Positions 2,863 through 52,290 are shown, numbered from the stretch's first letter. The stretch: DNA of 64,000 nucleotides from Candidatus Spyradenecus sp. (GCA_051884775.1 JBJEVY010000070.1:2033-66032), one strand, 5' to 3'. Numbers and translations are program-made. The notes: a model not told the origin generated them from the letters alone.

Positions 2863-3127
2863 CCCCCGCCGAACGCCCTGTTTCCACTTGCCGCCCCGGG
2901 CCCTGTCGCCTTGGGGACCGACGGTTTCCCGCGAGCAAGCTCGCGGGCACGCCGGGGGGTGCCGCCTTTGGCGGACACCTTCACCTCCCCCGCCTTTGGT
3001 GGACACCTTCGCCTCCCACGCCACGCACCCGGGCCTACTTCGCTTTGGACTCGGGCCTATCTCGAGGTGGCCTCGTGCGAGGCGGGGGCCGTGGGGCGGA
3101 TTTTTTGCGGGGAGCGTAAAAAAGTGC

Positions 3128-3156
3128 TTGCATTGGCGGGGCGAGTTTGGCATAAT
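3128..3156 (+). promoter_or_regulatory. Sigma70-like promoter for tRNA-Gln: TTGCAT, 17-nt spacer, CATAAT with upstream TG
   Basis: Hexamers and spacing read directly. Nearly the same spacer sequence (GGGGCGAGTTTGG CATAATG) recurs at the rpsP promoter. Confidence 0.5.
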
Positions 3157-3176: not shown

Positions 3177-3250
3177 TGCCTCATGGTGTAACGGTAGCAC
3201 AACTGACTCTGGATCAGTTTGTCAAGGTTCGAATCCTTGTGAGGCAACCA
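3177..3250 (+). tRNA. tRNA-Gln (anticodon CUG), CCA encoded
   Basis: Cloverleaf folded by hand. Acceptor stem tgcctca/tgaggca, anticodon stem actga/tcagt with loop cTCTGGa, T-arm caagg-TTCGAAT-ccttg, 4-nt variable loop. Confidence 0.85.
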
Positions 3251-10463: not shown

Positions 10464-10568
10464 GGACTACGGCGTGGTTGACCTCGAGAGACGGCGTGGT
10501 CGACCTCGAGAGACGGCGTGGTCGACCTCGAGAGACGGCGTGGTGCGAAACCCACCACGCCGTAGTCC
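10464..10568. repeat. Four tandem ~22-nt repeats (CGGCGTGGTCGACCTCGAGAGA) bracketed by a 15-bp inverted repeat (ggactacggcgtggt / accacgccgtagtcc)
   Basis: Read directly. Intergenic, between divergent M23 and NfeD genes. Confidence 0.8.
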
Positions 10569-10591
10569 ACGTGCCACCCTCCCCCGCGCGC

Positions 10592-10740
10592 GTTCACCGC
10601 CCACCGTTCTCCGTTCTCCGCTCACCGTTCACCGCTCACTGTTCACCGCTCACTGTTCACCGTTCACTGTTCACCGTTCTCCGCTCACTGTTCTCCGTTC
10701 ACTGTTCACCGTTCACCGTTCACCGTTCACTGTTCACCGC
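10592..10740. repeat. Heptanucleotide microsatellite (GYTCWCY)n, about 21 units
   Basis: gttcacc/gctcact/gttctcc units in perfect 7-nt register. Lies just upstream of the AT-rich putative promoter of the nfeD-SPFH operon. Confidence 0.85.
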
Positions 10741-19633: not shown

Positions 19634-19660
19634 CCCGCCAGAGGCCCGCCTAGCGGCGAT

Positions 19661-19775
19661 GCGGGCTGCGCCCGCGTGAGGTGCGCCTGGCGGCGCGTGA
19701 GGAGGCGGCTACGCCGCCGTGAAGTGCGGGCTGCGCCCGCGTGAAGTGGGCCGCGAGGACGCGGCCCGTCAGAAC
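19661..19775. repeat. 115-bp intergenic repeat, copy 1 (REP-like, GCGTGAGGTGCGCC units)
   Basis: Near-identical second copy at 20058-20173, differing at a few positions. Confidence 0.85.
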
Positions 19776-20173: not shown

Positions 20174-20409
20174 CTGCACCGCCCGGGGGGCTTGGGGGAC
20201 CACCCCCAACGGCCCTTGCGGCAACGCGCGGCAGCGCGTTACCGCTGCGCGTGCCCGGCAGCCCCCGTGCCCCCCCCCGTTCCTGCCTTCAGCGGAGGTG
20301 CCCGCAGGGTGCCTCCGCCGGGGTGGAGCGCACCGCGCTCCCGAGGTGCAGGGCGAGCAGCCCTGCCGCGGGGGTGCGGGGGCGAGCAGCCCCCGGGCGC
20401 CATAGCGCG

Positions 20410-20430
20410 TCTTGGGCTTGTGCTATAATG
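20410..20430 (+). promoter_or_regulatory. Extended -10 promoter (TGcTATAAT) 7 nt upstream of the trmH-like ATG, suggesting a leaderless mRNA
   Basis: cttgTGcTATAATgcggcccATG read directly. The same CTTGTGCTATAMT block occurs at 1563-1577. Confidence 0.45.
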
Positions 20431-21395: not shown

Positions 21396-21443
21396 TAACC
21401 TTCCCCCTGAGGCGGCATGAGGCGGCAAAGCGCAAAAAAGGCT

Positions 21444-21472
21444 TGCACCCGGGGGCGAGTTATGGCATAATG
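21444..21472 (+). promoter_or_regulatory. Promoter of the rpsP operon: TTGCAC, 17 nt, CATAAT
   Basis: Spacer ccgggggcgagttatgg is almost identical to the tRNA-Gln promoter spacer tggcggggcgagtttgg. Confidence 0.5.
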
Positions 21473-21559: not shown

Positions 21560-21811
21560 ATGGTAAAGATTAGATTGCGTAAGACCGGGTGCAACCGCGT
21601 GGCGACCTTCCGTGTGGTGGCCTGCGATTCGCGTAGCCCGCGTGACGGTAAGTTTCTCGAGATCCTCGGCTGGTACGATCCCCGCAAGGAGACGCTCGAG
21701 CAGAAGTGCGGCTTGAACCTCGAGCGCGTGGCCTATTGGAAGAGCCAGGGCGCCCAGGTCTCCGAGACCGTGGCTTCCCTCATCAAGCAGGTTCAGAAGG
21801 CCCAGGCCTAA
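21560..21811 (+). CDS. rpsP: 30S ribosomal protein S16
   Basis: MVKIRLRKTGCNRVATFRVVA... canonical S16. Upstream extension in the track rejected. Confidence 0.9.
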   Translation: MVKIRLRKTGCNRVATFRVVACDSRSPRDGKFLEILGWYDPRKETLEQKCGLNLERVAYWKSQGAQVSETVASLIKQVQKAQA

Positions 21812-29620: not shown

Positions 29621-29653
29621 CGCGCTGCCGCGCGCAGCCGTTAGCGATTAGCG

Positions 29654-29734
29654 GCTAGGCTAGCGATTAGCTGTTAGCGGCTGGGCTAGCGATTAGCTGT
29701 TAGCGGCTAGCGGTTAGCGGATGGCGACATGGGG
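29654..29734. repeat. Tandem repeat of TTAGCG-based units (tagcgattagcKgttagcggctRggc x3), followed by GC-rich palindromes (gcgagcgcgc-aac-gcgcgctcgc)
   Basis: Read directly. Lies between comM and the rhuM islet. Confidence 0.8.
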
Positions 29735-29871
29735 GCTTCTCGCCCCCACCCCCTCGGGAGCGCAGGGCGCTCCTCCCCGCCGCGAGCGCGCAACGCGCGC
29801 TCGCTTGTCAGTTCCCCCTGGGCCAAAATTATGGTATACTCTTGCTAACCTAGTTGACTTTGGAGAATACC

Positions 29872-40006: not shown

Positions 40007-40114
40007 TACGATAAACCATCCTTCGTAGAAACAAACGCCCATAGTATACCACATTCCCACGCACCGCGCGTGCGGGGCGCGCACTCAGCTACAGCTGTGA
40101 CTGAGGCGCAGAGG

Positions 40115-42133
40115 TTATCTATTCGTAAGCGCTTGGCGTAGAGCGTTGTGCCACTCGAGGGGGTCGCCGGCTCGATGGAAGTGTTCCTCAAAGCGGGCAT
40201 AGAGCTCGCGATAGGAAGTGGAGCCCAGAAGTTGACGCAGCATCTGCGTGTCGAGGGGGATTATCTTCATCCCGGGGCACTTCTGCGTGCAGTCGCTGGC
40301 GCGGTAGTAAACTTGCGCCTTGCGCATACGAAAGTCAGAGATGACGTTGGGGTTGAGGTGGGGGGCGATAAAGGTACAATAGGCCTTAGCGTGATCCGGG
40401 CTCGCCAGGAGGTATTCGCCCAGGTGCCGCGAGACCGGCTCCATCTCCATCCGCCGCTGAGCGTCTTTCTCGGCAAGCGTCACTTCAATCAAGAGCTGGT
40501 GGCGTGGATAATAGGGCGGATTGGCTTCGTAGTGCCACACGATGTCCGCTTCGCCACCACCTGCGTGCGTCTTGGGCATAAAGTCAGCCCCCAACGAGAG
40601 GTTCATATAGTCCAGCACCTCCCCGGTTTCGCCGCTGATGTAATACCACGCCAATGCCACGATGTACTCAAAGAGCGTCGGCAGGTCGGCTTCCTGAGTG
40701 ATGAGCTCTTGAACCGCTTTGTCGTGTTTCCGGTCCTCGACCATCTCGAGGAGCTCGCGGACGGTCTCGATGGGGAAACGATGGTGCAAGAGCGCCTTGA
40801 AGCGTGCGTAGCGTTCGGCCTGCAGAACGGCCCGAATGCCACCGGCATCCCGTAGTTTCTCAGTCGATAGCCCTGTTGCTTCAAGGACGAGCTCGGTCTT
40901 GCTCGGGAGCGGTAGCGGAATGAGGTCCGCCAAAGGCACATCTTGCTCGAGGAGATGACAGGGCGCGAAGGCCTCCCGGTCAAGCCAAGAGGCAATGTGC
41001 TTGACGAAGACGCTTGGCAGTAAATCGAGGTAAACGCGCTCGTCGGCAAAGACGACGACATCGGCGAGGCGGAAGTAGCGCTTGTTCAGGTCGGCATAAT
41101 CGTGCAAGGTTGCCTTGGCCTTCAAGAGCTGCATCAGCTCAAAGAAGCGCTTGCGGAAGTCCGCCTCGGTGGTTGCTTGAAGGATGGCCAGGTCGGCACG
41201 CCACCCCTCGGTCAACTGCTTGCGCTTCCCACTGAGGCCAAAGACTTGCTTCCACTCTCGACTCAGGTTACACACCTTGACGGCCTCGAGGAAGGCACTC
41301 AGTCGTTCCTCTGTCACGCCCCTGAAGACAATCTCGTGCAATGTCGTGAAGATGCCTAGGTAGGCCTTATCGTAGCGCTTATCGCCATCCGCTCCGCTCT
41401 TACGGTTCATCCCCACTTGGCAGATAAGGCGTTCATCCACCTGCTTGGCTGTTAAGAAGAGTGCGAGCGCCTCCTGATAGTTCTCCATCCCCATCAAGAC
41501 CTTGAGAATCTCGGCATCGATGTCGAACGATTGTCCCGCCGCGCGAGATCGATTGATGGCACCGACAATCTGGGACAAGCGGTTAGGATTGACGCACAGC
41601 GGCAGCAGATAGACGAACTCCTCCTGCGTGAGATAGCGCTTCCCCTGACTATCTGGCGCAACCTTATTCAAGACATCGAGCAACACGACAAAGGGGCGAA
41701 TAGACGAAGCGGCCTCCTTGTTTGTAGCTTTAAGCAATTGCAGGAAGTAGCACGCGCAGTCCTTTGCCAAATCCAAGAGGTCCTCGGGGGCAATGGCGAA
41801 GTCCTGCGCCTCTGAAATGGCCCAAAGGCGTTTCCCCGCCTCGGTCAGTTGGCGTTTCTCCGTCAGGAGCCCCAAATCCACCAAGCCCGAAGTCTTCTCG
41901 CGCGCGTCCTTGTCCGGCCGCGAAGCAGAGCCCTCGACAAGGCCTTGCTGCTGGAGCACCGTGTAATAGGCGGTCTGTACGGAGCAGTCAGACCAGCCCT
42001 TTGTCAACTTCCCACGGCTCTCCCAAAAGTCGTGAAGGTATCGCAGTTGCAGCTCGATGTCCCGGTTGATATGCTTTGTCCGGAAGCTGGTGGTTCCCAT
42101 GGACCAGCAGAAACTCTTGTAGGCAAGCGCCAT
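40115..42133 (-). CDS. Type IIS restriction endonuclease, AlwI/PleI/N.BstNBI family (RE_AlwI)
   Basis: C-terminal region aligns with the N.BstNBI catalytic end as I recall it (HAGGGEADIVWHYE...IEVTLAEK...MEMEPVSRH...CTFIAPH...KIIPLD), including a PD-(D/E)XK-like motif. Lies 12 nt downstream of the two-domain adenine MTase. Lower GC than neighbours. Confidence 0.6.
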   Translation of the reverse strand: MALAYKSFCWSMGTTSFRTKHINRDIELQLRYLHDFWESRGKLTKGWSDCSVQTAYYTVLQQQGLVEGSASRPDKDAREKTSGLVDLGLLTEKRQLTEAGKRLWAISEAQDFAIAPEDLLDLAKDCACYFLQLLKATNKEAASSIRPFVVLLDVLNKVAPDSQGKRYLTQEEFVYLLPLCVNPNRLSQIVGAINRSRAAGQSFDIDAEILKVLMGMENYQEALALFLTAKQVDERLICQVGMNRKSGADGDKRYDKAYLGIFTTLHEIVFRGVTEERLSAFLEAVKVCNLSREWKQVFGLSGKRKQLTEGWRADLAILQATTEADFRKRFFELMQLLKAKATLHDYADLNKRYFRLADVVVFADERVYLDLLPSVFVKHIASWLDREAFAPCHLLEQDVPLADLIPLPLPSKTELVLEATGLSTEKLRDAGGIRAVLQAERYARFKALLHHRFPIETVRELLEMVEDRKHDKAVQELITQEADLPTLFEYIVALAWYYISGETGEVLDYMNLSLGADFMPKTHAGGGEADIVWHYEANPPYYPRHQLLIEVTLAEKDAQRRMEMEPVSRHLGEYLLASPDHAKAYCTFIAPHLNPNVISDFRMRKAQVYYRASDCTQKCPGMKIIPLDTQMLRQLLGSTSYRELYARFEEHFHRAGDPLEWHNALRQALTNR

Positions 42134-42145
42134 CGGCGGCCTCCG

Positions 42146-44221
42146 TTAGTAGTTGATGACCAGGATTTCGCGTGAGGTGCCGCGCTGCTTGCGTTGGTAA
42201 TTGGCGTTGGAGTAGTCGCGCTGGACTTCGATGACCTTATAGTCGGCGGCGTGCTGCGCCAACCAATTCAACAGCAGCGCGTTGGTCCGGCCGTTGCTGT
42301 GCGTTACATTGGAGAGGGCGAAACGGCAGCCAGCGCGGTGCAGGCGGTCGAGCAACGCTAAGAGATCCTGCTCGTCCTGCTCGGTCCAGCCGCCATTTTC
42401 GTTGTAGGAGGCGGTCGTGACAAGATAAGGCGGGTCGGCATAGACAAAGTCGCGCGGACCTAAAGCGGCCAAGTCCAGCTGCCGGAAGTCTTGGCACAAG
42501 AAGTCAATCGTGCGCGTGTGCAGGCGGTCGATGAAGGCGCGCAGCTTCTCCTGCATTTTGGCATTGAAGTCACGCTTCCCCACGGGCAGGTTATATTCTC
42601 CCTTGGCATTGAAGCGGATTTGGTTGTTGAAGCCATAGACGATTAGCACATACAGGGCGATAGACTTCTCGGGCGTGCCGTCGGCCAAGGTGGCGTAGTG
42701 CCGCCGCAACGCCAGATAGGGCTCCTTGTTGAAGGCCCCGAGCCCCTTGGACGAGTTACCTCCGTAAGGTTCATAACCGTTGCGTTCGCTATCCGACAGC
42801 CCAAAGCGCGCGATCACCTCCCGCACCTGTGCGCTGAACTGCTCGGACGAGAGCGCCTTCATCGTCTTGAAGAGCGCAATCAACTGCGCGAGCGAGTCCA
42901 CGCAGAGAACCCGCTTCGCCGGGACATTGACCCCCACATTGCAGCCGCCGCAGAAGAGGTCGACACATGTGTCAATCTCACGCGGGAAGTGCGGGAGCAA
43001 CTGATTGAGGATGCGGAACTTGCCACCGGTGTAGTTCAGCGGCGAGGAGACCCACGCCAGCTCCGAGCGGCACTTGCACAGGAAGATGCGCTCGACGTTA
43101 TCCTCCCGGCTGGACTTGCCGGCAGAGAAGGCCTTGTGGCTGCAGTGGAAAACCATTACCTCGCCCTTCGCGCGCAGGGTCCGCAGGATGGCCTCATCCG
43201 AAAGCTTCGCATTCGAGCGCTCGTTACCCTGCTCGGCCATATTGTTGTAGGTCAGCACCAGGTATCGCGCCTTGACATTAGCCACCAACTCGGCAAAGGC
43301 ATCCTCGGCCTTCTGCGTGCAATAGTCGCTCTTCAGGGCGCTCCGGTCCATCTTCCGCGCCACCCCCACCACGCTTGGCTTCTCCCACCGCGCCACATTC
43401 TCCAGCACATGATAGGCATCGCTATACTGCCGGCTGTTGTAAGGCGGGTCCATAAAGAAGACATCCACCTGCCCCAACTGCGGGGCAAGCACGTTGGCAT
43501 CCAGGTTAAAGCACTGATTATCCGCATAGGCGCACTTCGGCGGCACCGGCAAACGCAACTCCAAGTGCTTCTCAAAGGCCGTGTGCTTGCGATAGGCGTC
43601 GTAGTGCCCCACTGTGTTGGCAATCTTGTCCATCGCGTAGAGCAACGAGGCAATGAGCAAGGCCCGCTCACGGCCATTCACCTCGCCGGCGGCGTAGCGC
43701 TGCTCGATGTCCTCGCGAATGTAGCCAATGCGCCGGCAATCCTCGGCCGAAAAGTAGGTGTCGGCAAAGTGCTCGCTCATATAGTTTTCGCCCGGCTCGG
43801 TCAGGGCGTTATACCCTTGGAGCAACCGCGCCACCTTTGCCTCGTCGTAGGCTTCGCCCGAGAACCAGGCCACGTGGCAAATGTAGTTGCTGTAGAGAAT
43901 GTCGTTGGTAATCAGGTGCTTGTCGCTAAACGCCGAAGCCACCGACCCCGTGCCAGCAAAGATGTCAACGAAGCTCTCCACCCCCTCGCAATGCGTCTCG
44001 ACAATCCGCCGAATCTCCTCTAGCAGCCGATACTTATTCCCCAAATAGCGGCGATTGTAGATGTAGACCTTCTTCAACGGCACTGCTTCCACTCCCTCCA
44101 CAGGGACAGACTCCACCACCCCGTCGGCGAGCCCCGTCGCACCAACAGCTAGCAATTCAACGCAAAATCCTCTCCGCGTAACGCTCCTCATAACACCTTC
44201 ATTGTACCACAAGACACCCAC
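42146..44221 (-). CDS. Fused two-domain D12-class (Dam-like) N6-adenine DNA methyltransferase, typical of Type IIS R-M systems (M.FokI-like architecture)
   Basis: Two complete Dam-like halves, each with SAM-binding F-x-G-x-G and DPPY motifs (FFMDPPYNSRQYSD and VYADPPYLVTTASYN). N-terminal ~45 aa uncertain. Confidence 0.75.
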   Translation of the reverse strand: MGVLWYNEGVMRSVTRRGFCVELLAVGATGLADGVVESVPVEGVEAVPLKKVYIYNRRYLGNKYRLLEEIRRIVETHCEGVESFVDIFAGTGSVASAFSDKHLITNDILYSNYICHVAWFSGEAYDEAKVARLLQGYNALTEPGENYMSEHFADTYFSAEDCRRIGYIREDIEQRYAAGEVNGRERALLIASLLYAMDKIANTVGHYDAYRKHTAFEKHLELRLPVPPKCAYADNQCFNLDANVLAPQLGQVDVFFMDPPYNSRQYSDAYHVLENVARWEKPSVVGVARKMDRSALKSDYCTQKAEDAFAELVANVKARYLVLTYNNMAEQGNERSNAKLSDEAILRTLRAKGEVMVFHCSHKAFSAGKSSREDNVERIFLCKCRSELAWVSSPLNYTGGKFRILNQLLPHFPREIDTCVDLFCGGCNVGVNVPAKRVLCVDSLAQLIALFKTMKALSSEQFSAQVREVIARFGLSDSERNGYEPYGGNSSKGLGAFNKEPYLALRRHYATLADGTPEKSIALYVLIVYGFNNQIRFNAKGEYNLPVGKRDFNAKMQEKLRAFIDRLHTRTIDFLCQDFRQLDLAALGPRDFVYADPPYLVTTASYNENGGWTEQDEQDLLALLDRLHRAGCRFALSNVTHSNGRTNALLLNWLAQHAADYKVIEVQRDYSNANYQRKQRGTSREILVINY

Positions 44222-44308
44222 CTCTATCTACTTTCACACAGACTTCCAAGGTCCGTGAGGCGGAGGTTCGCGGGCGAGCGCGGGGGCGAGCTGTGGGGGC
44301 GGGAGGCC

Positions 44309-44338
44309 AATAAAAACCCCGCGGGTTTCCGCGGGGGA
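44309..44338 (-). terminator. Rho-independent terminator of the giant repeat-protein gene (hairpin ccccgcgg-gttt-ccgcgggg followed by UUUUUAUU on the minus strand)
   Basis: Hairpin plus T-run read directly, immediately 3' of the stop at 44363. Confidence 0.7.
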
Positions 44339-44362
44339 GGAATGATATATATGGAATGAGAG

Positions 44363-47300
44363 TTAAGGCTCCAGCTTGACGGTCAACTTAATCGCCTGCT
44401 CGCCGGTTGCGAGCGGGAGACACGGCGCTTGCGCCGGGACGATGGTGCATTGACCGTTCGTGAAGGTGGGGGACTTGAGGGCGTAGGCCGCAACCTTCTC
44501 GCCATTCGCGTAGAGGTTGAGGGTGCCATTGAGGCGACCGGAGCGGGCGGTGGCAGCGGCGCCGGAGCCCTCCTTAAGGCCGATGGTGACGGAGGTCAAC
44601 GGAATCCCCTCGGCAGTCACATTGCCGGCGGTAATGGCCTCGATACCGAACTCATAGGCGTAGGTCAGCGCGGCCGAAGAGGCCTCGTCAGCCGAGAAGG
44701 CCAGCGCGGCATTCAATAGCCACGCCTTCTCCGCCACATCGGCCCGATCCTCCTTCGATTGATCCTGCGTCACCAATGCCGCCGAGCCATTGAGCACCAA
44801 CGCCGGGTCGAGCACTGCCAGGGTCGTCTTGGTCCCCCCAAGCTCGGTCTCCACAGTATCCAGGCGAGCGACCACATCGCCATTGGCCGCCGCAAGGTAG
44901 GCAGAGCCCGCCTCGGTCTGCGCATTGGCCAACGCCTTGGCCCCGTCCAACGCGAGCGTGTGGGTGACCGTGCCAGCCTCCGCATCTGTCGCCGTCGAGA
45001 CCGGGTTCGCCTGAGTTGCCTCGGCCACAATCGCGTTACCTGTCTCCGAGCCCGCCGTCTGCGTCACCGACTGCACGGTTTCGCCCTGCTTGAGGTTGAT
45101 GGCCAACCCCGGCGAATCCGAGAGGTTCGTCGCATTCCCGGCGTTATCCTTCGTGACAATCGCCAAGTCCGAAACTGCGCCCTCGGCCTCAACCGTCAGC
45201 GTTGTCGTCGGTTGCTCGGCCGCAACCGTCGCCGCGCCCGAGTTCCCCTGCGAGGGACAGTAGGTCCCCGCCGGGTCATACGAGCCATTGCCAATCGCCG
45301 CCGGAACGGTACCGCCCGCTGCTGCCGCGCCAGCCGTGGCCGTAATCGTTGCCGTGGACGCAACGACAATCTGCCCGCCGTGCTGCGCGTGGTGCCCGCC
45401 GCCGATGGCCGAGGCGCCAGTACCGCCCACCGCCACCACCTGCGCGGTGCCGGAGAGGGTGATATTCGGGAAGTTCATTGGCGTGCCATACTGGATGCCA
45501 TTCTGGGCCCACGAATCGTGACCGCCACCAATGCCTGCGCCACCCTGGCCGCCATAGGCCCACACCTGCGCGCTGCCTGTAATAACCACTTGGTCGGGAT
45601 AGGCCCCGGCCGCCACCGAAGTGTAGGCGGGATAGCACGGAATGCGCCCGGAGCCAATCGCCGCGCCGGTGGGGCTATTGCACAGGGTCGGCGAAACGGC
45701 TGTGTAGGTGCCGCCCCAGTAGGCATAGGTTCCGGGGCCGGCGTTGACTGCGAGCACCTTGGCACTCCCACCAATAGTCACATTCGCTCGGTTGGCATAA
45801 CCGCCGCCAATCGCCGCGCCATCGGCAAGGTATCCCGAGACGTCCGTGGTGTTATCCGCGCCCGAGTAGACCGTCAACCCCACCGCCTCGGCAATCACCT
45901 CTGCCGCGCCATTGATGATAATTTCGCCTGACCCGAGACCGTAATTGCCCGAGCCAATAGCCGCCACAGAGGACTGTCCGATAGCCGTCACCTCCGCATC
46001 GCTGATGTAGATGCTCTCGACCGAGGCACGATAGGCCCCGCCGATGCCACACCCATTCGGCGAGCCCTTGGCAATCACCTTCGTTGCCGCGCCGGTAATC
46101 GAGATGGTCATCTCGTCCACCGCCGCCGTGCTGCGCCCACCGTAGGTGCCGATGCCCGCACCAAGCGCTGAGTTCGAGTTATTAAAGCGTTCGCCCACGG
46201 CAGCCCACCCTTGCTGTTCAGCCGTCACCGTGCCTCCGGTGATGTTCACAGCTGTAACGCCAATGCAGAAGCCGGCACCAATCGAAGCACCGTAATCCTT
46301 CGCCTTGGCAATCACCGTGCCCGAGGCGATTGAGATGGTGCCTCCGCGCGTATAGAGGGCATAACCCGTGTTGATATAGCCACCGCCGCCGATGGCCGCA
46401 GCGGCATAGCCGCCCAAGGCCGTGATTGTGCCCGTGCCTTGCAGGATAATATCGCCGGGTGCGTAATAATAGTATCCACCAATGGCAGCGGCCCACTTAT
46501 TTCCGGAGGCATCCACCACAAGGTCACCATCGCCCTGAATCGTCAGCACCGTTGTGCTTCCATAGACGCAAATACCGCCCGTAATCGCATTACTTCCCTT
46601 CAAGGTCAAGGCGCATGTGCCCGAGATATAGAGCGGCTGGAAGTGTGCAGTCGAAGCCGAGACCAGCGAAACCCCATCCAAGGTCACTTCTGCGTCCCAT
46701 TCACTCGACACCAACGAATAGTTTGCAGGCGTTGAGAGCGTCTTCCCATTGCCCCGCAAGGTAATCACTTGTGGCAAGGTGACATCATCCTCGATTGCGC
46801 AGTCTGCAACCAAGTCCACCGTATCTCCCGAGACGGCAGCTTCAACGGCTGCAGCGAAGGTGTCATAGCCCACCGTGCCGATGCGGGCGACGGCGGTATC
46901 GGAGAGGTGAATGGTGATGACGCTTTCGGTGGTGGAGGCGGTGCCATTGCCGACAGTATCCGCCAAGACCTTATTGCCGCCTGCGTCCGAGCCGATGGTA
47001 ATGGTGGAGACGCCCGTCTTACCCGTGCCACCGATGGCCGAAGCAGTGGCTCCATTGGTCGTGGCCGTAACGGAAGCCTCGCTATCAATGGTAATCGAGC
47101 CAATGGTGATGCCGAAGGTCGTAGCCGAACCGGCACCAATCGCCGCCGCGGAAGTTGAAGAAGCAACGATATTGGTTCCCGCGCCAGAGATGGAGATGCT
47201 GTCAGTGGCTGCCGTCTCAGCGTTAGAGACATTGGCGTAGTTCGCACCACCACCGATGGCCGAACCCGAATCTGAAGCCGCGACGATATCACCACCCTCA

Positions 47301-49813
47301 ATCGTGATGGTACCGAAGCAGGCATTCTGCCCGCCGCCAATGGCCGCACCAGCTGCATCATTCGTTAGCGTCATCAACGCGAGCCACGCCTCGGCTGTGG
47401 TCTCGTCCACCCCCATCTTGGCGGTCACCGTCGCCTGTTCAGGTTTAACATTGGTCGTCGCAACAATAGCTGGAGAGCCACTCATGGTGATTGTGGGCAC
47501 CACCTTCCCCTGTGAACCGGTGCCAATTGCCGCGCCAGCAGAGCTGTAAGCCAAAATCTTTCCACCCAAGAGTTGAATATCCGCCCCCGTGCCTGCGCTG
47601 TGCCAGCCCGTGCCGATACCTGCGCCGTTAAGACCAATGGCTACCACTGTACCATCTGTCACTTTGATTGTTCCGGAGGCCCCAGCCAGGCGTCCGCCGC
47701 CAATCGCAGCTCCGGAGTTCGAAACAGCGAGCACCGTACCCGTGCCAGCAAATGTCATAGCGCCGCTGCTCTCCCCTGCATCACCACCAATTGCCGCACC
47801 CTGCATCGCTCGGGCATCCAACGAACCCGTTCCCGTAAGGGTCAAACCACCGCCGCTCGGGACCTTAAGAGCCGCCGCCGTATCGTTCGCCGTGAGCGTG
47901 TTCGCACCCGTCAAAGTCACCGTTACACTCGAAGCGGGCAGGACCAATGCAGAATAGCCCTCTGTCGGCTTAATCGTCACATCCGAGAGCGTAACATCTC
48001 CTGCCGCTGCCACGGTGAGATTGGTGGCCACACCCTTCAACACCGTACCACTAGGAATGGAGAGTCGAGCCACTTCGTCATCGACCACCGTCACGCTCCA
48101 ATTCTCAGGAAGCACGCTGTTCGCCGTCAAGTCGGCTAGGTCAAACGCCTCTGCGGTCAATGTTTTGGGGAACTTCCCCGCTTCCTCGGCCTTGGTCGTG
48201 GTCACCGAAGCAAGCGGCGTGTAGGAGGCCACATTCTTGACTTCCGGAAGCGTCACCACATTCCGCCCCACGATGGCGACCGTTCCGTCGCACGCGTCAT
48301 TCACCGTCAGCGTCATTCCCGAGGTGCCGGAACGCTGGGCAAGCGTCATCGTGCCGGTGAAAGACCCCACCGTCAGACTATTGTTGCCCTCCACCTTGAA
48401 AGAACCCGCACATGTAATCGCCTTAAGATTGGCCCCATAGTCGTCACCCTCCGGGAAGACTAGTTCCGCGCCATCTGGCAATGCAACCGTCACATCGGCA
48501 TTCGCCCCTTTCAGGATAACCGCCTTATCGGTCGTCTTCACCGTAACGCTATCCCCACTCACCTCAACGGCCTCAGAGGGGGTTGCACTTTTATTCGCCA
48601 AATCAATAATCACGGCTCCCAAGATTCCCATGGGCGTGTTACCGCCGCGCGTATCCACACTCGCCGTCTCCGCCACCTCTAACGTGCAGGTTGAGGTCGA
48701 TGCCTCCACGCCATTACCCGGGCCAATCGCATAGGCTGCACCCGTTCCTGCCTGTGCCACCACCGTTGCTGTATCCGCGATTTTAATCGTTCCACCATCG
48801 GTCGAGCCCTTCGTGCCGGCTGAACCGCCAATCGCTACGCCCTTATCCGACGCAATCGCCGTTACCTGGGCAGTTCCACCAATCGTGATGTCCGGTGCAT
48901 TGTACGTCGAGCAATTCGCATTTTCGTTTGCACCTGCACCTATGGCTGCCGCACCAGGCACTCCCTCTGCCGAGATTGTCGCCGTCACCACCGCCGTGCC
49001 GTCAATGACAATCTTTGGCGTACGAGCCGACTCTCCGCCACCAATCGCTGCCGCACCGTAGGAACTGCTTGCCGTTACGGTACCTCCGTGAATTGCAATC
49101 GTCCCCGCTGCAGCTGTTTGTGCAAGCCATCCCGAACCGATTCCAGCCCCTTGGCAACCGATGGCTGTGATAACACCTCCGTTAATCGTGACATTGCCAA
49201 ATCCCAATCCATCATAGAGGCCATGCCCAATCCCCGATGCGCCGCCTTTAGATGTACACGCTGCCTTCAATTCGCCTGTACCACCCTCAATAATCAATGT
49301 GCCACCAGCGGGAACAGTAATGCCGGCATGACATGAATGATTGGCGCTACTCGAAATCGAATAACTGCCGGTAAAGGTGTTTTCCGTTCCATCAGTCAAG
49401 CGAAGCGTCACCGTATGGTTATCTGTGTAAAGCGTGTGGACATTAAGGCCGCCAACGCCGGCGGTGTAGTGTCCCGAAGGCTCAACCGTCACGCCATCCA
49501 AGGTAAGGGTGATGTCTGCCCCAGCTTTCAAACCAAACGCTGTCGCAGACCCCGTGAGCGTAAGGTCTGCCCCAATCACCAAATGGCGAACCTCCACTTT
49601 GGTCTTTTGAGAACCCAGTTCATAACTTGAATACTCATAGGTTGCGTTTGGGACGGTATCGCCATTCAACAGACGAACCGTTTGTCCGCTTCCTGTAGCG
49701 GAGAAGTAAGAGGTGTCAACCTGACCAAGGTCGAAGGTCGTCACCTCTGCGGCCTGCACAACGAGGCAGGCTGTGGCGCATAAGAGCGCGGAGAGTAAGG
49801 TCTTGGGGCTCAT
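44363..49813 (-). CDS. Giant secreted Gly/Ala/Thr/Ser-rich repeat protein (~1816 aa), beta-helix / Hep_Hag-like adhesin repeats (GAAIGGG, GAGIG units)
   Basis: Signal peptide MSPKTLLSALLCATACLVVQAAE. ggagga RBS. Dozens of degenerate x-AAIGGG/GxGIGxG repeats. No recognisable autotransporter barrel or sorting tag at the C-terminus. Confidence 0.7.
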   Translation of the reverse strand: MSPKTLLSALLCATACLVVQAAEVTTFDLGQVDTSYFSATGSGQTVRLLNGDTVPNATYEYSSYELGSQKTKVEVRHLVIGADLTLTGSATAFGLKAGADITLTLDGVTVEPSGHYTAGVGGLNVHTLYTDNHTVTLRLTDGTENTFTGSYSISSSANHSCHAGITVPAGGTLIIEGGTGELKAACTSKGGASGIGHGLYDGLGFGNVTINGGVITAIGCQGAGIGSGWLAQTAAAGTIAIHGGTVTASSSYGAAAIGGGESARTPKIVIDGTAVVTATISAEGVPGAAAIGAGANENANCSTYNAPDITIGGTAQVTAIASDKGVAIGGSAGTKGSTDGGTIKIADTATVVAQAGTGAAYAIGPGNGVEASTSTCTLEVAETASVDTRGGNTPMGILGAVIIDLANKSATPSEAVEVSGDSVTVKTTDKAVILKGANADVTVALPDGAELVFPEGDDYGANLKAITCAGSFKVEGNNSLTVGSFTGTMTLAQRSGTSGMTLTVNDACDGTVAIVGRNVVTLPEVKNVASYTPLASVTTTKAEEAGKFPKTLTAEAFDLADLTANSVLPENWSVTVVDDEVARLSIPSGTVLKGVATNLTVAAAGDVTLSDVTIKPTEGYSALVLPASSVTVTLTGANTLTANDTAAALKVPSGGGLTLTGTGSLDARAMQGAAIGGDAGESSGAMTFAGTGTVLAVSNSGAAIGGGRLAGASGTIKVTDGTVVAIGLNGAGIGTGWHSAGTGADIQLLGGKILAYSSAGAAIGTGSQGKVVPTITMSGSPAIVATTNVKPEQATVTAKMGVDETTAEAWLALMTLTNDAAGAAIGGGQNACFGTITIEGGDIVAASDSGSAIGGGANYANVSNAETAATDSISISGAGTNIVASSTSAAAIGAGSATTFGITIGSITIDSEASVTATTNGATASAIGGTGKTGVSTITIGSDAGGNKVLADTVGNGTASTTESVITIHLSDTAVARIGTVGYDTFAAAVEAAVSGDTVDLVADCAIEDDVTLPQVITLRGNGKTLSTPANYSLVSSEWDAEVTLDGVSLVSASTAHFQPLYISGTCALTLKGSNAITGGICVYGSTTVLTIQGDGDLVVDASGNKWAAAIGGYYYYAPGDIILQGTGTITALGGYAAAAIGGGGYINTGYALYTRGGTISIASGTVIAKAKDYGASIGAGFCIGVTAVNITGGTVTAEQQGWAAVGERFNNSNSALGAGIGTYGGRSTAAVDEMTISITGAATKVIAKGSPNGCGIGGAYRASVESIYISDAEVTAIGQSSVAAIGSGNYGLGSGEIIINGAAEVIAEAVGLTVYSGADNTTDVSGYLADGAAIGGGYANRANVTIGGSAKVLAVNAGPGTYAYWGGTYTAVSPTLCNSPTGAAIGSGRIPCYPAYTSVAAGAYPDQVVITGSAQVWAYGGQGGAGIGGGHDSWAQNGIQYGTPMNFPNITLSGTAQVVAVGGTGASAIGGGHHAQHGGQIVVASTATITATAGAAAAGGTVPAAIGNGSYDPAGTYCPSQGNSGAATVAAEQPTTTLTVEAEGAVSDLAIVTKDNAGNATNLSDSPGLAINLKQGETVQSVTQTAGSETGNAIVAEATQANPVSTATDAEAGTVTHTLALDGAKALANAQTEAGSAYLAAANGDVVARLDTVETELGGTKTTLAVLDPALVLNGSAALVTQDQSKEDRADVAEKAWLLNAALAFSADEASSAALTYAYEFGIEAITAGNVTAEGIPLTSVTIGLKEGSGAAATARSGRLNGTLNLYANGEKVAAYALKSPTFTNGQCTIVPAQAPCLPLATGEQAIKLTVKLEP

Positions 49814-49888
49814 CGTCTTTCCTCCATAGGTTTCGGGTCCACGCATCCAAGGCTGCGCAACCTACTATCATCGTCCAATGACACCCCT

Positions 49889-49916
49889 ATAATACTACCC
49901 CCCCCCAACAAGTCAA
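49889..49916 (-). promoter_or_regulatory. Putative promoter of the giant repeat-protein gene: TTGACT, 16-nt spacer containing a G9 homopolymer, TATTAT; A9 tract further upstream
   Basis: Minus-strand reading: cTTGACTtgttGGGGGGGGGtagTATTATagg, about 75 nt upstream of the ATG. An A-run (49931-49939) sits 14 nt upstream of the -35. Confidence 0.5.
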
Positions 49917-50216
49917 GCCCCGCGTGAAACTTTTTTTTTGAACAGGGCAAGATATGTGGAAGATGCGCCGAGCGCGAGCGGTGGAAAGCAGGGTGCAGCC
50001 ATGGACAGCACCGAACGCTTGCGGACTAGCGCGGAGGCTTGTGGTGGGCTAGCGCGGAGGCTGCTCGCCCCCACGCCCCTCGGGAGCGCAGAGCGCTCCA
50101 CCCCGGCCGATGCGCCCTCCGGGCACTTCGGCTATAGGCACGCCGAACGGGGGCTGCCAGGCCCACCCAGCCCTACCCCTGCCGCGCCCTTTCCCCGACC
50201 CCGCCCCGGGGCCGAT

Positions 50217-50460
50217 TATTAACCCTGAGGGATAATGCAATTAACCCTTAGGGTTAATTCAATTAAGCCTTAGGGATAATTCAATTAACCCTGAGGGATA
50301 ATGATTCCGCCCGGGCCGGGTTCGCCTCGAGGGAGGCCCGGGTTGACCTCGGACCCGGGCCGGGTTCGATAATTAACCCCACGGGGATAATTCAATTAAG
50401 CCCGTGGGGATAATTCAATTAAGCCCACGGGCTTAATTCAATTAAGTCCGGGGCTTAATG
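50217..50460. repeat. Two arrays of four tandem 22-bp units. Each unit is a 19-bp palindrome (ATTAACCCTnAGGGTTAAT type in array 1; ATTAAGCCCnnGGGnTTAAT type in array 2) plus a TCA linker. The arrays flank a GC-rich core with its own 15-bp direct repeat (cccgggccgggttcg)
   Basis: Read directly. No spacers between units, so this is not CRISPR-like. Confidence 0.85.
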
Positions 50461-50655
50461 GTTCCGCCCGGGCCGAGCGGGGGTTTGGGGGCCTGCCCCC
50501 AACGGCCTCTGCGGCGACGCGCGTCAGCGCGCCGCCGCTACGCGAGCCAAGGTGCCCCAAGATGCCAAAAGCCGACGTGCCCAAAGGGCGCGTCGGCCGG
50601 GGTGGAGCGTCCCACGCTCCCGAGGGGTGTGGGGGCAAGCAGCCCCCATCAAACA

Positions 50656-52290
50656 TCAGAGGCTGTGGGGGGTGGGCTTAGCGGGGTCGAGAGCCAAGTC
50701 AGCGGCTTCGGCAGCGAGGTCAGCGAAGGGCCGCTTATGCTTGGGGTGGATATTGTTCGCTTCGCCGAGTTTGCGCGAGAAGGTATCAAGATAGATGGCG
50801 TTGGGGGTGGCGGCGCAAACCTTCGCCTGGAGCTTGCGATAGGGTTCCCAGGGGCGATTCATCACGGGGAGGCCGACCATCAGGAAGGGGACCTTGTCGT
50901 TTGGCCGCAGGCTCTCAATCACCGCGCGCAGGGTCTCCTCCATATAGGCCTCCTCGAGGGGGGCATCCTTTTCGCCGCCGATGGCGACCGAGGCGTTGCT
51001 CTCGCCCTGGTACCACAGGACGCCGGTGAGCGGCAGGTGGCGGATGCGCGCAATCGCGCAGTTGTAGAGGCGGTTGACCTCCCACCCCACCGCTTCCTGA
51101 CGCAGGCGGTTGGGATAGACCTGCTTGCACCAGGTGCGCGGATAGTCCTCGTTCTGGTCCAGCGGCTTACGGTTGGTGACAATCTTGCTCAGGCGCGGAT
51201 ACTTGGGCGAACCATCGGGCTTGACGGCGGCCATCACGTCCGCGGCCAGGAAGGACTCGGTGGGGGCGCCACCCACGCCCACGAGCAGGAGGGCGATGGG
51301 CTTGCCCGAGGCGCGGGCGCGGCGGTTGGCAAAGGAGATGGCCATCGCGCTCCAAATGCCAGCATTCTGGGGCGTGATGCGCTGCCAGACCCCGCTGACG
51401 TAGTCCCAGAGCCAGATTTCGTGGGTGGCGGTCTCGGCGGCCTCTTCAGCGGCGGCGGTGCAGCGGTTGAGGGGCCAGAACATGTTGGATTGGCCGGCGC
51501 AGAGCCAGGTTTCGGCCTTGCCCTCCAGCCCCTCGGGGAGCGCGACGGGGCCGGGCGTGGGCCAAGGGAGGGCCCAGCCTTGGCTATTGGCGATGCGCTC
51601 GCGCGCGGCCTTGGCGCGGTCGACCTTCCCAGGCTTGAGGACCTCGGCCGTGGTGATGGCGATGAGGGCGGCGCCCTGGGCGTTGGGGTGGATCTTATCG
51701 GGGAAGAAGGTGGTCACATAGGGCTTGAGGGGCGTCTCCATATCGATGGCCACGGCGTTGACCTCGGCGGCCACCGCATCAAGCTCGCGCTGCATCAGGA
51801 AGGGCTCGGGGCTGCGGTAGAACTTCTGGCCGGGCGAGAGGGGCGAGAGCTTGGTCCAGATGTAAAACTTGGGCTGGGAGGGGAGCGCCTGATAGTCGGC
51901 CAAGAGCGCCAGGTAGTCCTTGCGGAAGGTGCCCGGAGCGCGGCGTTCGGTCTTGAGGAACTCGCCGCAGTCGTTGATGCCCAGATTGCAGATGACGATG
52001 TCCGGCTGCCAAGCCAGGGCCTCCTGGTGCTCCTTCATCGCGCGATAGGCGCGCTTCTCCTTGCCGCGCCAGGAGTGCTGGTAGATGCCGCGGCCCGGGT
52101 TGCCGAAGTTGCGAACCTCGTAATCACTCCCCAAGAGCGCCTGCAACTTGACGGGATAGGACTCTTTTTCGCGCGCCTTCAGTCCCGTGCCGAAGGTGAT
52201 CGAGTCGCCAATGCACGCCACCTTCACCCGCTGAGCCCACGCCCCCGCCGCCAGCACCACCGCCAACAAAACCAACACCAAACGCTTCAT
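50656..52290 (-). CDS. Secreted two-domain carbohydrate esterase: SGNH/GDSL hydrolase plus sialate-O-acetylesterase-like (SASA) domain
   Basis: Signal peptide. GDSIT (GDS motif) near the N-terminus. GQSNM motif in the second half. Confidence 0.6.
   Translation of the reverse strand: MKRLVLVLLAVVLAAGAWAQRVKVACIGDSITFGTGLKAREKESYPVKLQALLGSDYEVRNFGNPGRGIYQHSWRGKEKRAYRAMKEHQEALAWQPDIVICNLGINDCGEFLKTERRAPGTFRKDYLALLADYQALPSQPKFYIWTKLSPLSPGQKFYRSPEPFLMQRELDAVAAEVNAVAIDMETPLKPYVTTFFPDKIHPNAQGAALIAITTAEVLKPGKVDRAKAARERIANSQGWALPWPTPGPVALPEGLEGKAETWLCAGQSNMFWPLNRCTAAAEEAAETATHEIWLWDYVSGVWQRITPQNAGIWSAMAISFANRRARASGKPIALLLVGVGGAPTESFLAADVMAAVKPDGSPKYPRLSKIVTNRKPLDQNEDYPRTWCKQVYPNRLRQEAVGWEVNRLYNCAIARIRHLPLTGVLWYQGESNASVAIGGEKDAPLEEAYMEETLRAVIESLRPNDKVPFLMVGLPVMNRPWEPYRKLQAKVCAATPNAIYLDTFSRKLGEANNIHPKHKRPFADLAAEAADLALDPAKPTPHSL

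Follow-up and report, generated by a model that had tools for sequence, protein, structure and literature searches.

The window, the 64,000 nt analysed here, belongs to a MAG of Candidatus Spyradenecus sp., an uncultured gut bacterium of the Lentisphaerota (PVC group). Its minus strand carries a giant gene (44363..49813; ATG at 49813, stop codon at 44363) for a secreted beta-strand-repeat protein of 1816 residues, a 100% match of equal length to the NCBI 'beta strand repeat-containing protein' P0001. A Sec-type signal peptide (MSPKTLLSALLCATACLVVQA/AE) forms its N-terminus, and its sequence contains repeats of the AIGGG type. An intrinsic terminator on the same strand (44309..44336), CCCCGCGG-aaac-CCGCGGGG followed by TTTTT, begins 27 nt past the stop codon and consists of an 8-bp all-GC hairpin (44336-44317) and a run of five T. 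Because of this terminator of its own, the giant gene was considered monocistronic. The gene downstream has its own promoter-like site, TGgTACAAT.

On sequence comparison, the 1816-residue protein is related to the class of proteins defined by Pfam PF18889 (Beta_helix_3), but stays outside it by the curated cut-off: its match scored 22 bits (E = 2e-4), below the gathering threshold of 27 bits, and it is thus not a member. A profile built from four members of its own family reached many PF18889-carrying proteins, with E values down to 1.8e-55. Sequence searches of NCBIfam and PDB with the giant protein returned nothing at threshold. An AF2 model of residues 1001-1816 had a mean pLDDT of 58, with about 470 residues modelled confidently, all of them in all-beta repeats, and the protein was modelled as a right-handed parallel beta-helix; Foldseek found no match for it in the PDB. 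The predicted fold resembles the passengers of adhesins, and lyases and tailspikes match it equally well. With Vag8, EtpA, UpaB, pertactin, SRRP, Cthe_2159 and tailspike depolymerases the likeness is one of fold, with no membership at the sequence level.

The preliminary description had called the product an adhesin-like surface protein. The signal peptide and a beta-helix fold like that of adhesin passengers speak for this, but the fold is equally like that of glycan lyases. 'Adhesin-like' is therefore a fair description of the predicted protein at the level of its fold, as a resemblance only. The product may be exposed at the cell surface. No autotransporter barrel, TPS domain, LPXTG motif, dockerin or SLH anchor was detected in it, and Pfam, NCBIfam and the neighbouring genes revealed neither the C-terminal beta-barrel nor the N-terminal TPS domain with TpsB partner that mark type V secretion. 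According to Pfam, the neighbours of the giant gene are a restriction-modification (R-M) pair and a GDSL esterase. A phage origin of the gene was considered and rejected, as it had no relatives in IMG/VR.

Ahead of this gene, a near-consensus promoter with a 16-nt spacer made up mostly of nine G had been proposed, and direct reading of the minus strand at 49880-49945, cAAAAAAAAAgtttcacgcggggcTTGACTtgttGGGGGGGGGtagTATTATaggggtgt, bore it out in exact letters and coordinates. The -35 hexamer TTGACT (49916-49911; 5/6 against TTGACA) and the -10 hexamer TATTAT (49894-49889; 5/6) enclose tgtt, a G9 homopolymer (49906-49898; C9 on the plus strand) and tag, that is 4 + 9 + 3 = 16 nt, 9 of which belong to the G9, the proposed slippage-prone element. 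An A9 tract (49939-49931) lies 14 nt upstream of the -35, as had also been described, at about -57 to -49 from the putative transcription start site (TSS). Placed about 7 nt downstream of the -10, this TSS would fall at ~49882 and yield a 5' leader of ~68 nt (49814..49882), with a Shine-Dalgarno sequence GGAGG (49825-49821) 7 nt ahead of the ATG. In a consensus scan, the pair TTGACT/TATTAT was the sole site with 10/12 matches in 49500-50800; the whole window, on both strands (128 kb of strand), held three such sites against 0.83 expected from Markov-1 simulations. Rfam recognized no RNA family in the candidate promoter region, its only matches in the window being two tRNAs. The two hexamers would, by their sequence, form the promoter of the giant gene in vivo.

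The sigma-70 rules used here are those of E. coli and may not hold in Lentisphaerota, so the other promoters of the window were taken as reference. Extended -10 sites of the form TGnTAtaaT occur 12 times in the window, with few exceptions directly ahead of a gene. One architecture is common to the three strongest promoters, those of the tRNA at 3177 (3115-3156, plus strand), of rpsP at 21561 (21434-21471, plus strand) and of the tRNA at 55746 (55797-55759, minus strand): an A6-7 tract, 2-4 nt, a -35 of the type TTGCAY/TTGCCT (TTGCAT, TTGCAC and TTGCCT were the words found), 17 nt and TGnTAtaaT. In sequence terms, the strong promoters of this lineage combine an A-tract, a -35 starting with TTG and an optimum of 17 nt, and A-tract, TTGCAY, 17 nt and TGnTAtaaT together amount to a first sketch of its promoter grammar. 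The claim that 17 nt is the optimal spacer was supported by the two tRNA promoters and the rpsP promoter, which use exactly this length; since these three share both traits, a 17-nt optimum and an UP-like role of the A-tract are credible in this organism, as far as promoter sequences can tell. For the A9 ahead of the giant gene the UP-like assignment stood in part: A-tracts precede the -35 boxes of the lineage, but this one is displaced by 14 nt from its -35. Its unusual position and the difference between TTGACT and the lineage word TTGCAY are points against the interpretation that we prefer below. The -10 of the giant gene is preceded by TAg and lacks the TGn extension used by most promoters of this genome. 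By established sigma-70 logic, such a promoter would be expected to rely on its -35 and to respond to changes in spacing. A G run as a conserved promoter element of the lineage was discarded as an idea: at least three G were found in the spacers of 11/12 TGn sites, but at 65% G+C chance alone predicts about half.

A separate observation from the same promoter survey concerned translation starts. At several genes the ATG follows the -10 by just 7-9 nt without a Shine-Dalgarno sequence, which suggests leaderless mRNAs. By the spacing from -10 to ATG, candidates are the SpoU methylase (20421-20430), a metalloenzyme-family gene (55532-55515) and the R-M methyltransferase (44209-44191). If the latter is leaderless, its start would be the ATG at ~44191 (681 residues) and not the GTG at 44221.

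A search of 5.8 billion protein clusters found no more than three relatives of the giant protein, with 35-39% identity; the remaining matches were distant PF18889-type repeat proteins. The genes of the three relatives lie on six contigs (L001-L006), which come from ENA, NCBI and Logan. All six carry, ~64 nt ahead of the ATG, the sequence gcAAAAAAAtgTTGCACagatG(8-10)t(t)ggTATCAT/TATTAT, which reads in parts A7-tg-TTGCAC-agat-G(8-10)-t(t)gg-TATCAT/TATTAT. This is the architecture of the tRNA and rpsP promoters (A-tract, TTGCAC, 17 nt, TGnTAtnAT) with a long G run added in the spacer. When the upstream DNA of the window and the orthologues was aligned with MAFFT, only the A-tract, a TTKCAC word, the G run, the -10 and the Shine-Dalgarno sequence could be paired, and the distance from promoter to ATG was kept at 64-75 nt throughout. 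In the MAFFT alignment the window's A9-g-TTTCAC stands opposite A7-tg-TTGCAC in the orthologues, which suggests, from the sequences, that the original -35 of the window was displaced by ~13 nt, with TTGACT taking over. The TTTCAC right behind the A-tract (49923..49928, minus strand), which is 29 nt from the -10 and out of register, would be a relic of the TTGCAC-type -35 of the lineage. Two further ideas about the promoter region were dropped: a G-quadruplex role of the tract, as inspection by eye showed that the G4 runs beside it in the window are not conserved in the orthologues, and a tie to AlwI methylation (GGATC), as no GGATC was seen by eye in the core-promoter stretch.

The length of the G tract differed between the contigs. 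For protein P0004 it was G9 in L001 (ENA) and L003 (Logan) and G8 in L002 (an NCBI MAG); for P0002, G9 in L004 (ENA) and G10 in L005 (Logan); and for P0003, G8 in L006 (ENA), all of these being lengths in assembled consensus sequences, some of which may go back to one and the same set of reads. L001 and L002 aligned over 6827 nt with 0 mismatches and a single gap, in the tract, as did L004 and L005 over 7298 nt. Runs of A7 and G6 in the same alignments showed no indel. Two larger stretches of L002 are also missing from L001, one of 64 nt (after position 2584) and one of 52 nt (after 9410, where a PilM-like ORF is truncated). Assembly noise at the homopolymer may be the source of the length differences among the six contigs.

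All seven alleles, that of the window and those of the six contigs, have spacers of 16 or 17 nt, and none has a tract length that would clearly be 'off'. In DNA of the L001 type the tract is followed by ttgg, so that G8 makes 16 nt and G9 makes 17 nt; in DNA of the L004 type it is followed by tgg, and the same spacers result from G9 and G10. That the sublineage without one T shifts its range up by one G (G9/G10 against G8/G9) suggests selection on spacer length, as judged from these alleles. The 16/17-nt states alone fit volume control better than a strict on/off switch. In E. coli, an extended -10 relaxes the dependence on the -35 and on spacing. The effect of tract length may thus be modest at the orthologous promoters, since they have such an extension (TGg). 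More distant beta-helix relatives had no G tract in their upstream DNA; one of them, in a Lentisphaerae MAG, has TGaTATAAT ~45 nt ahead of its ATG.

The orthologous giant genes themselves are mosaic, with ends that are 93-99% identical and middles that are rearranged or replaced. The proteins measure 1703, 1954 and 2279 residues, and the flanks of the locus are 91-99% identical. Exposed, diversifying proteins typically show such mosaic structure and length variation. In L006 two ORFs, of 436 and 1954 residues, take the place of a single gene, with a junction near 1636-1916, which could reflect a frameshift, a recombination event or a mis-assembly. The orthologous genes are preceded by MFS and galactokinase genes and followed by Amuc_1102-, PilM- and Amuc_1100-like genes. 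Further copies of the locus were found neither in GTDB species representatives nor in JGI metagenomes, both searched with protein and DNA patterns, nor in IMG/VR, and blastn of 49700-50700 gave no match among PLSDB plasmids. Neither P0001 nor R.AlwI nor a spurious 73-residue ORF in the promoter region led to a contig when looked up by exact protein, and the sources searched contained no second copy of the window's own tract at 49898-49906.

The G9 had also been described as the only homopolymer of its length in the window. This is incorrect: a second run of nine, C9 at 20270-20278, lies in GC-rich repeat DNA between priA and the SpoU methylase gene. It is outside any promoter spacer, ~150 nt upstream of the -10 (TGcTATAAT) of the SpoU-type methylase gene, and may serve as an internal control for homopolymer sequencing error. 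G/C homopolymers up to length 8 are about three-fold rarer in the window than expected: 34 runs of at least 6 were observed against 74 expected, 8 of at least 7 against 23, and 2 of at least 8 against 6.9, where both of the latter are runs of 9 and no run stops at 8. Among A/T runs, the A9 alone reaches 8 or more, and the sole other one of at least 7 (55791-55797) is the A-tract just upstream of the -35 of a tRNA promoter.

Taken together, the locus is a well-supported candidate for promoter-spacer phase variation or volume control. The preliminary description had read it as a phase-variation candidate, and the orthologues strengthen this reading, as they keep G8-G10 in the spacer and otherwise identical contigs differ in the tract. 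The G9 would be a simple-sequence 'contingency' tract in the sigma-70-type promoter spacer of a monocistronic giant beta-helix gene. Slipped-strand mispairing during replication would add or remove one G, which would alter the distance between -35 and -10 (15, 16, 17 or 18 nt) together with the rotational register of the hexamers, and thereby the rate of transcription initiation. The assembled G9 state (16 nt) is one base short of the 17 nt of the strongest promoters, which G10 would restore. We give a probability of about 0.6 to this reading, in which slippage in the G tract shifts the spacing and modulates transcription, more likely in a graded way (16/17 nt) than strictly on/off. Under it, the window's own tract would vary in length, and its length would alter expression.

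A real promoter with a static tract is an unlikely alternative. The tract would then be no more than an exceptionally long form of the G-rich spacers that are frequent in this GC-rich lineage, without switching at a meaningful rate, and G8, G9 and G10 would be sequencing or assembly noise or slow strain drift. Other promoter spacers of the window hold G4-G6 at a similar position (1567, 3148, 21463, 55532), a C9 is also present in non-promoter DNA, the states are limited to 16/17 nt, and the two larger indels between L001 and L002 look like assembly differences. Set against this is that runs of at least 8 G were kept in two lineages with proteins only 35-39% identical, although G/C runs of 7-8 or more are depleted about three-fold and the surrounding promoter DNA is otherwise unalignable between the window and the orthologues. 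Moreover, the tract is the sole small difference in 6.8 and 7.3 kb in two independent pairs. As far as is known, runs of at least 8 G are intrinsically slippage-prone in every bacterium tested. Tracts of 8C and longer have been taken as phase-variable (PMC13293289).

Transcription could also start elsewhere, by read-through from the GDSL-esterase gene or from another promoter in the 840-nt upstream region, in which case the hexamers would not be a promoter and the tract would be part of a leader RNA or inert. We consider this quite improbable. It is true that the -10 of the window lacks the TGn of the 12 other promoter-like sites, that the TSS at ~49882 was deduced from this -10 and that the minus strand showed nothing like a terminator from the GDSL gene to the tract; G repeats in regulatory leaders are also known, for example as the sRNA target of H. 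pylori tlpB (PMC4235727). However, 10/12 matches are as rare as given above (3 against 0.83 expected in 128 kb of strand), the orthologous site copies the A-tract/TTGCAC/17 nt/TGnTAtnAT of the tRNA and rpsP promoters base for base, the ATG always follows at a similar distance (64-75 nt), and no Rfam family matches at the site. A coincidental or mis-assembled homopolymer between two hexamer-like words is barely credible. The window is a single MAG consensus and the Markov-1 model predicts about two G/C runs of at least 9 per 64 kb, equal to the number observed, yet by our own estimate the odds that one of two such runs falls wholly inside one of three 10/12 spacers are ~10^-3, and six independent orthologous contigs from ENA, NCBI and Logan have the same feature.

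Switching by homopolymers in promoter spacers is a textbook mechanism in a few cultured pathogens. In van der Ende et al. 1995, porA expression was reportedly high with G11, medium with G10 and absent with G9. In Bordetella pertussis fim2/fim3 and Haemophilus influenzae hifA/hifB, promoter repeats switch an adhesive surface structure on and off. Switching by a spacer homopolymer is documented for porA, fetA and opc, where the tract makes the spacer 16, 17 or 18 nt long and spacings near the optimum of 17-18 nt lead to high, intermediate or low expression (PMC4235727; PMC13293289). Like porA (poly-G) and fetA/opc (poly-C) of Neisseria meningitidis, the present locus has a G/C tract in the range of ~8-12 nt in a sigma-70 spacer ahead of a gene whose product is exported or located at the surface, and the G9 of the window indeed has the length, at least about 8 nt, and the location between -35 and -10 of the homopolymers at these loci. 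The occurrence of adjacent tract lengths in otherwise identical DNA, here at the orthologous contigs and in assemblies only, is a further likeness. The differences are that the organism belongs to the Lentisphaerota, that the product is an 1816-residue beta-helix protein and not a porin or receptor, that the promoter grammar of the lineage includes an A-tract and usually an extended -10, and that only 16/17-nt states were seen.

The repeats of fim2/fim3 (poly-C) and hifA/hifB (TA, between -35 and -10) likewise alter the spacing of promoter elements. The fim tract, however, sets the distance between the site of an activator (BvgA) and the -10, whereas our locus has no known activator. The hif repeat is a dinucleotide common to two divergent promoters, whereas the giant gene has a single unidirectional one; the hif system is cited as reference 37 in PMC4235727. 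In Akkermansia muciniphila, also a gut bacterium of the PVC superphylum, long G/C runs were predicted to mediate phase variation of surface-related genes (PMC3048395), and the orthologous loci adjoin genes like Amuc_1102, pilM and Amuc_1100. The Akkermansia tracts lie in coding regions (translational switching) and are a prediction from one genome, whereas the present tract lies in a promoter spacer and comes with a comparative length polymorphism. This prediction was the only relevant match of the literature searches for the PVC group, and searches for Lentisphaerota together with phase variation returned nothing relevant. What is new is thus most likely the occurrence of a known type of switch in a phylum without a described case, as far as literature searches show. 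If confirmed, uncultured gut commensals would share this stochastic strategy and apply it to a giant secreted beta-helix protein, metagenome reads would offer a ready marker of population heterogeneity within hosts, and the protein family with its four members would stand out as a likely determinant of interactions with host, phage or glycans.

The giant gene is part of a strain-specific island of 10.5 kb (40070..50610), inserted between the GDSL esterase and GlnRS and delimited by comparison with a related strain. Its G+C content is lower, with 0.54-0.66 per 1 kb inside, mostly 0.57-0.62, and ~0.63-0.67 in the flanks. Besides the giant gene, its promoter and an upstream region of 840 nt rich in repeats, the island holds an R.AlwI-like endonuclease (40115-42133) and a fused double D12 methyltransferase (42146-44221), both assigned by Pfam. 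In the related strain (L010, gut metagenome ERR2597525), the GDSL/SASA esterase is directly followed by GlnRS, ArgRS and MotA; we regard 40070-50610 as strain-specific because the homology of this contig to the window stops at 50611 and restarts at 40069. Two contigs (L012, L013) have an element with DUF2924 and a large serine recombinase at the island site, another (L017) has a different neighbour there, and contigs with three other members of the GDSL cluster (P0080, P0081, P0083) lack the island. As related strains show an empty site, a recombinase element or another neighbour, the site looks like an integration hot spot; no att-like or flanking direct repeats were found at the island ends. 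The only contig with the strain's exact GDSL protein, L007 (Logan SRR30616791), corresponds to window 54919-50607 and stops 49 nt past the GDSL stop codon, before the promoter and at most 4 nt from the island junction 50610/50611. Perhaps only some of the cells in SRR30616791 carry the island; alternatively, the repeat may have broken the assembly.

In the upstream region, inverted repeats of 85 nt (50056-50140 and 50563-50647; 85% complementary) enclose two arrays of palindromic 22-23-bp units, four of ATTAACCCTnAGGGWTAAT (50218-50303) and four of AATTAAGCCCrnGGGGATAATTC (50371-50459), 300-540 nt upstream of the promoter. At the orthologous loci, a different palindromic unit of 23 bp, GACCCTTATAGGGTCTC, makes up arrays of variable copy number 600-850 nt upstream (L001 2060-2300, L004 1930-2230). 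These arrays could act as operators or as iteron-like sites, or belong to a MITE. Four copies of a REP-like intergenic element, GGGGTGGAGCGCnnnGCGCTCCCGAGG, are present in the window (20320-20346, 29752-29778, 50078-50104, 50599-50625) against 0 expected from shuffles, and two of them form the inverted-repeat arms upstream of the giant gene. In a more far-reaching version, which we rate as rather improbable, promoter with G tract, palindromic arrays and giant gene would form a portable 'contingency cassette' that moves among gut bacteria of the PVC group and landed here with an R-M system in a hot spot. The tract would then act as a two-state (16/17 nt) rheostat on the strongest promoter type of the lineage, possibly with a protein bound to the palindromic arrays, by analogy with spacing control of the nadA/NadR type. 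If true, simple-sequence contingency loci would be a general strategy of immune or phage evasion in uncultured commensal Lentisphaerota and no longer a speciality of pathogens.

Short tandem arrays also fill other intergenic regions of the window, with heptamers (CGTTCAC x21, AGCGGTT x12.7, AGCGGAC, GCTGTCA) and 22-nt units, at 10591-10739, 29636-29720, 57628-57658, 57738-57768, 10469-10544 and 19660-19748. Since such arrays abound, those upstream of the giant gene are not unique. Another very long ORF, of 1907 residues (57763-63486, minus strand), has an ABC1/atypical kinase-like domain and a weak match to TCAD9 (ternary-complex-associated domain), and is preceded by a TGgTATACT site at 63589.
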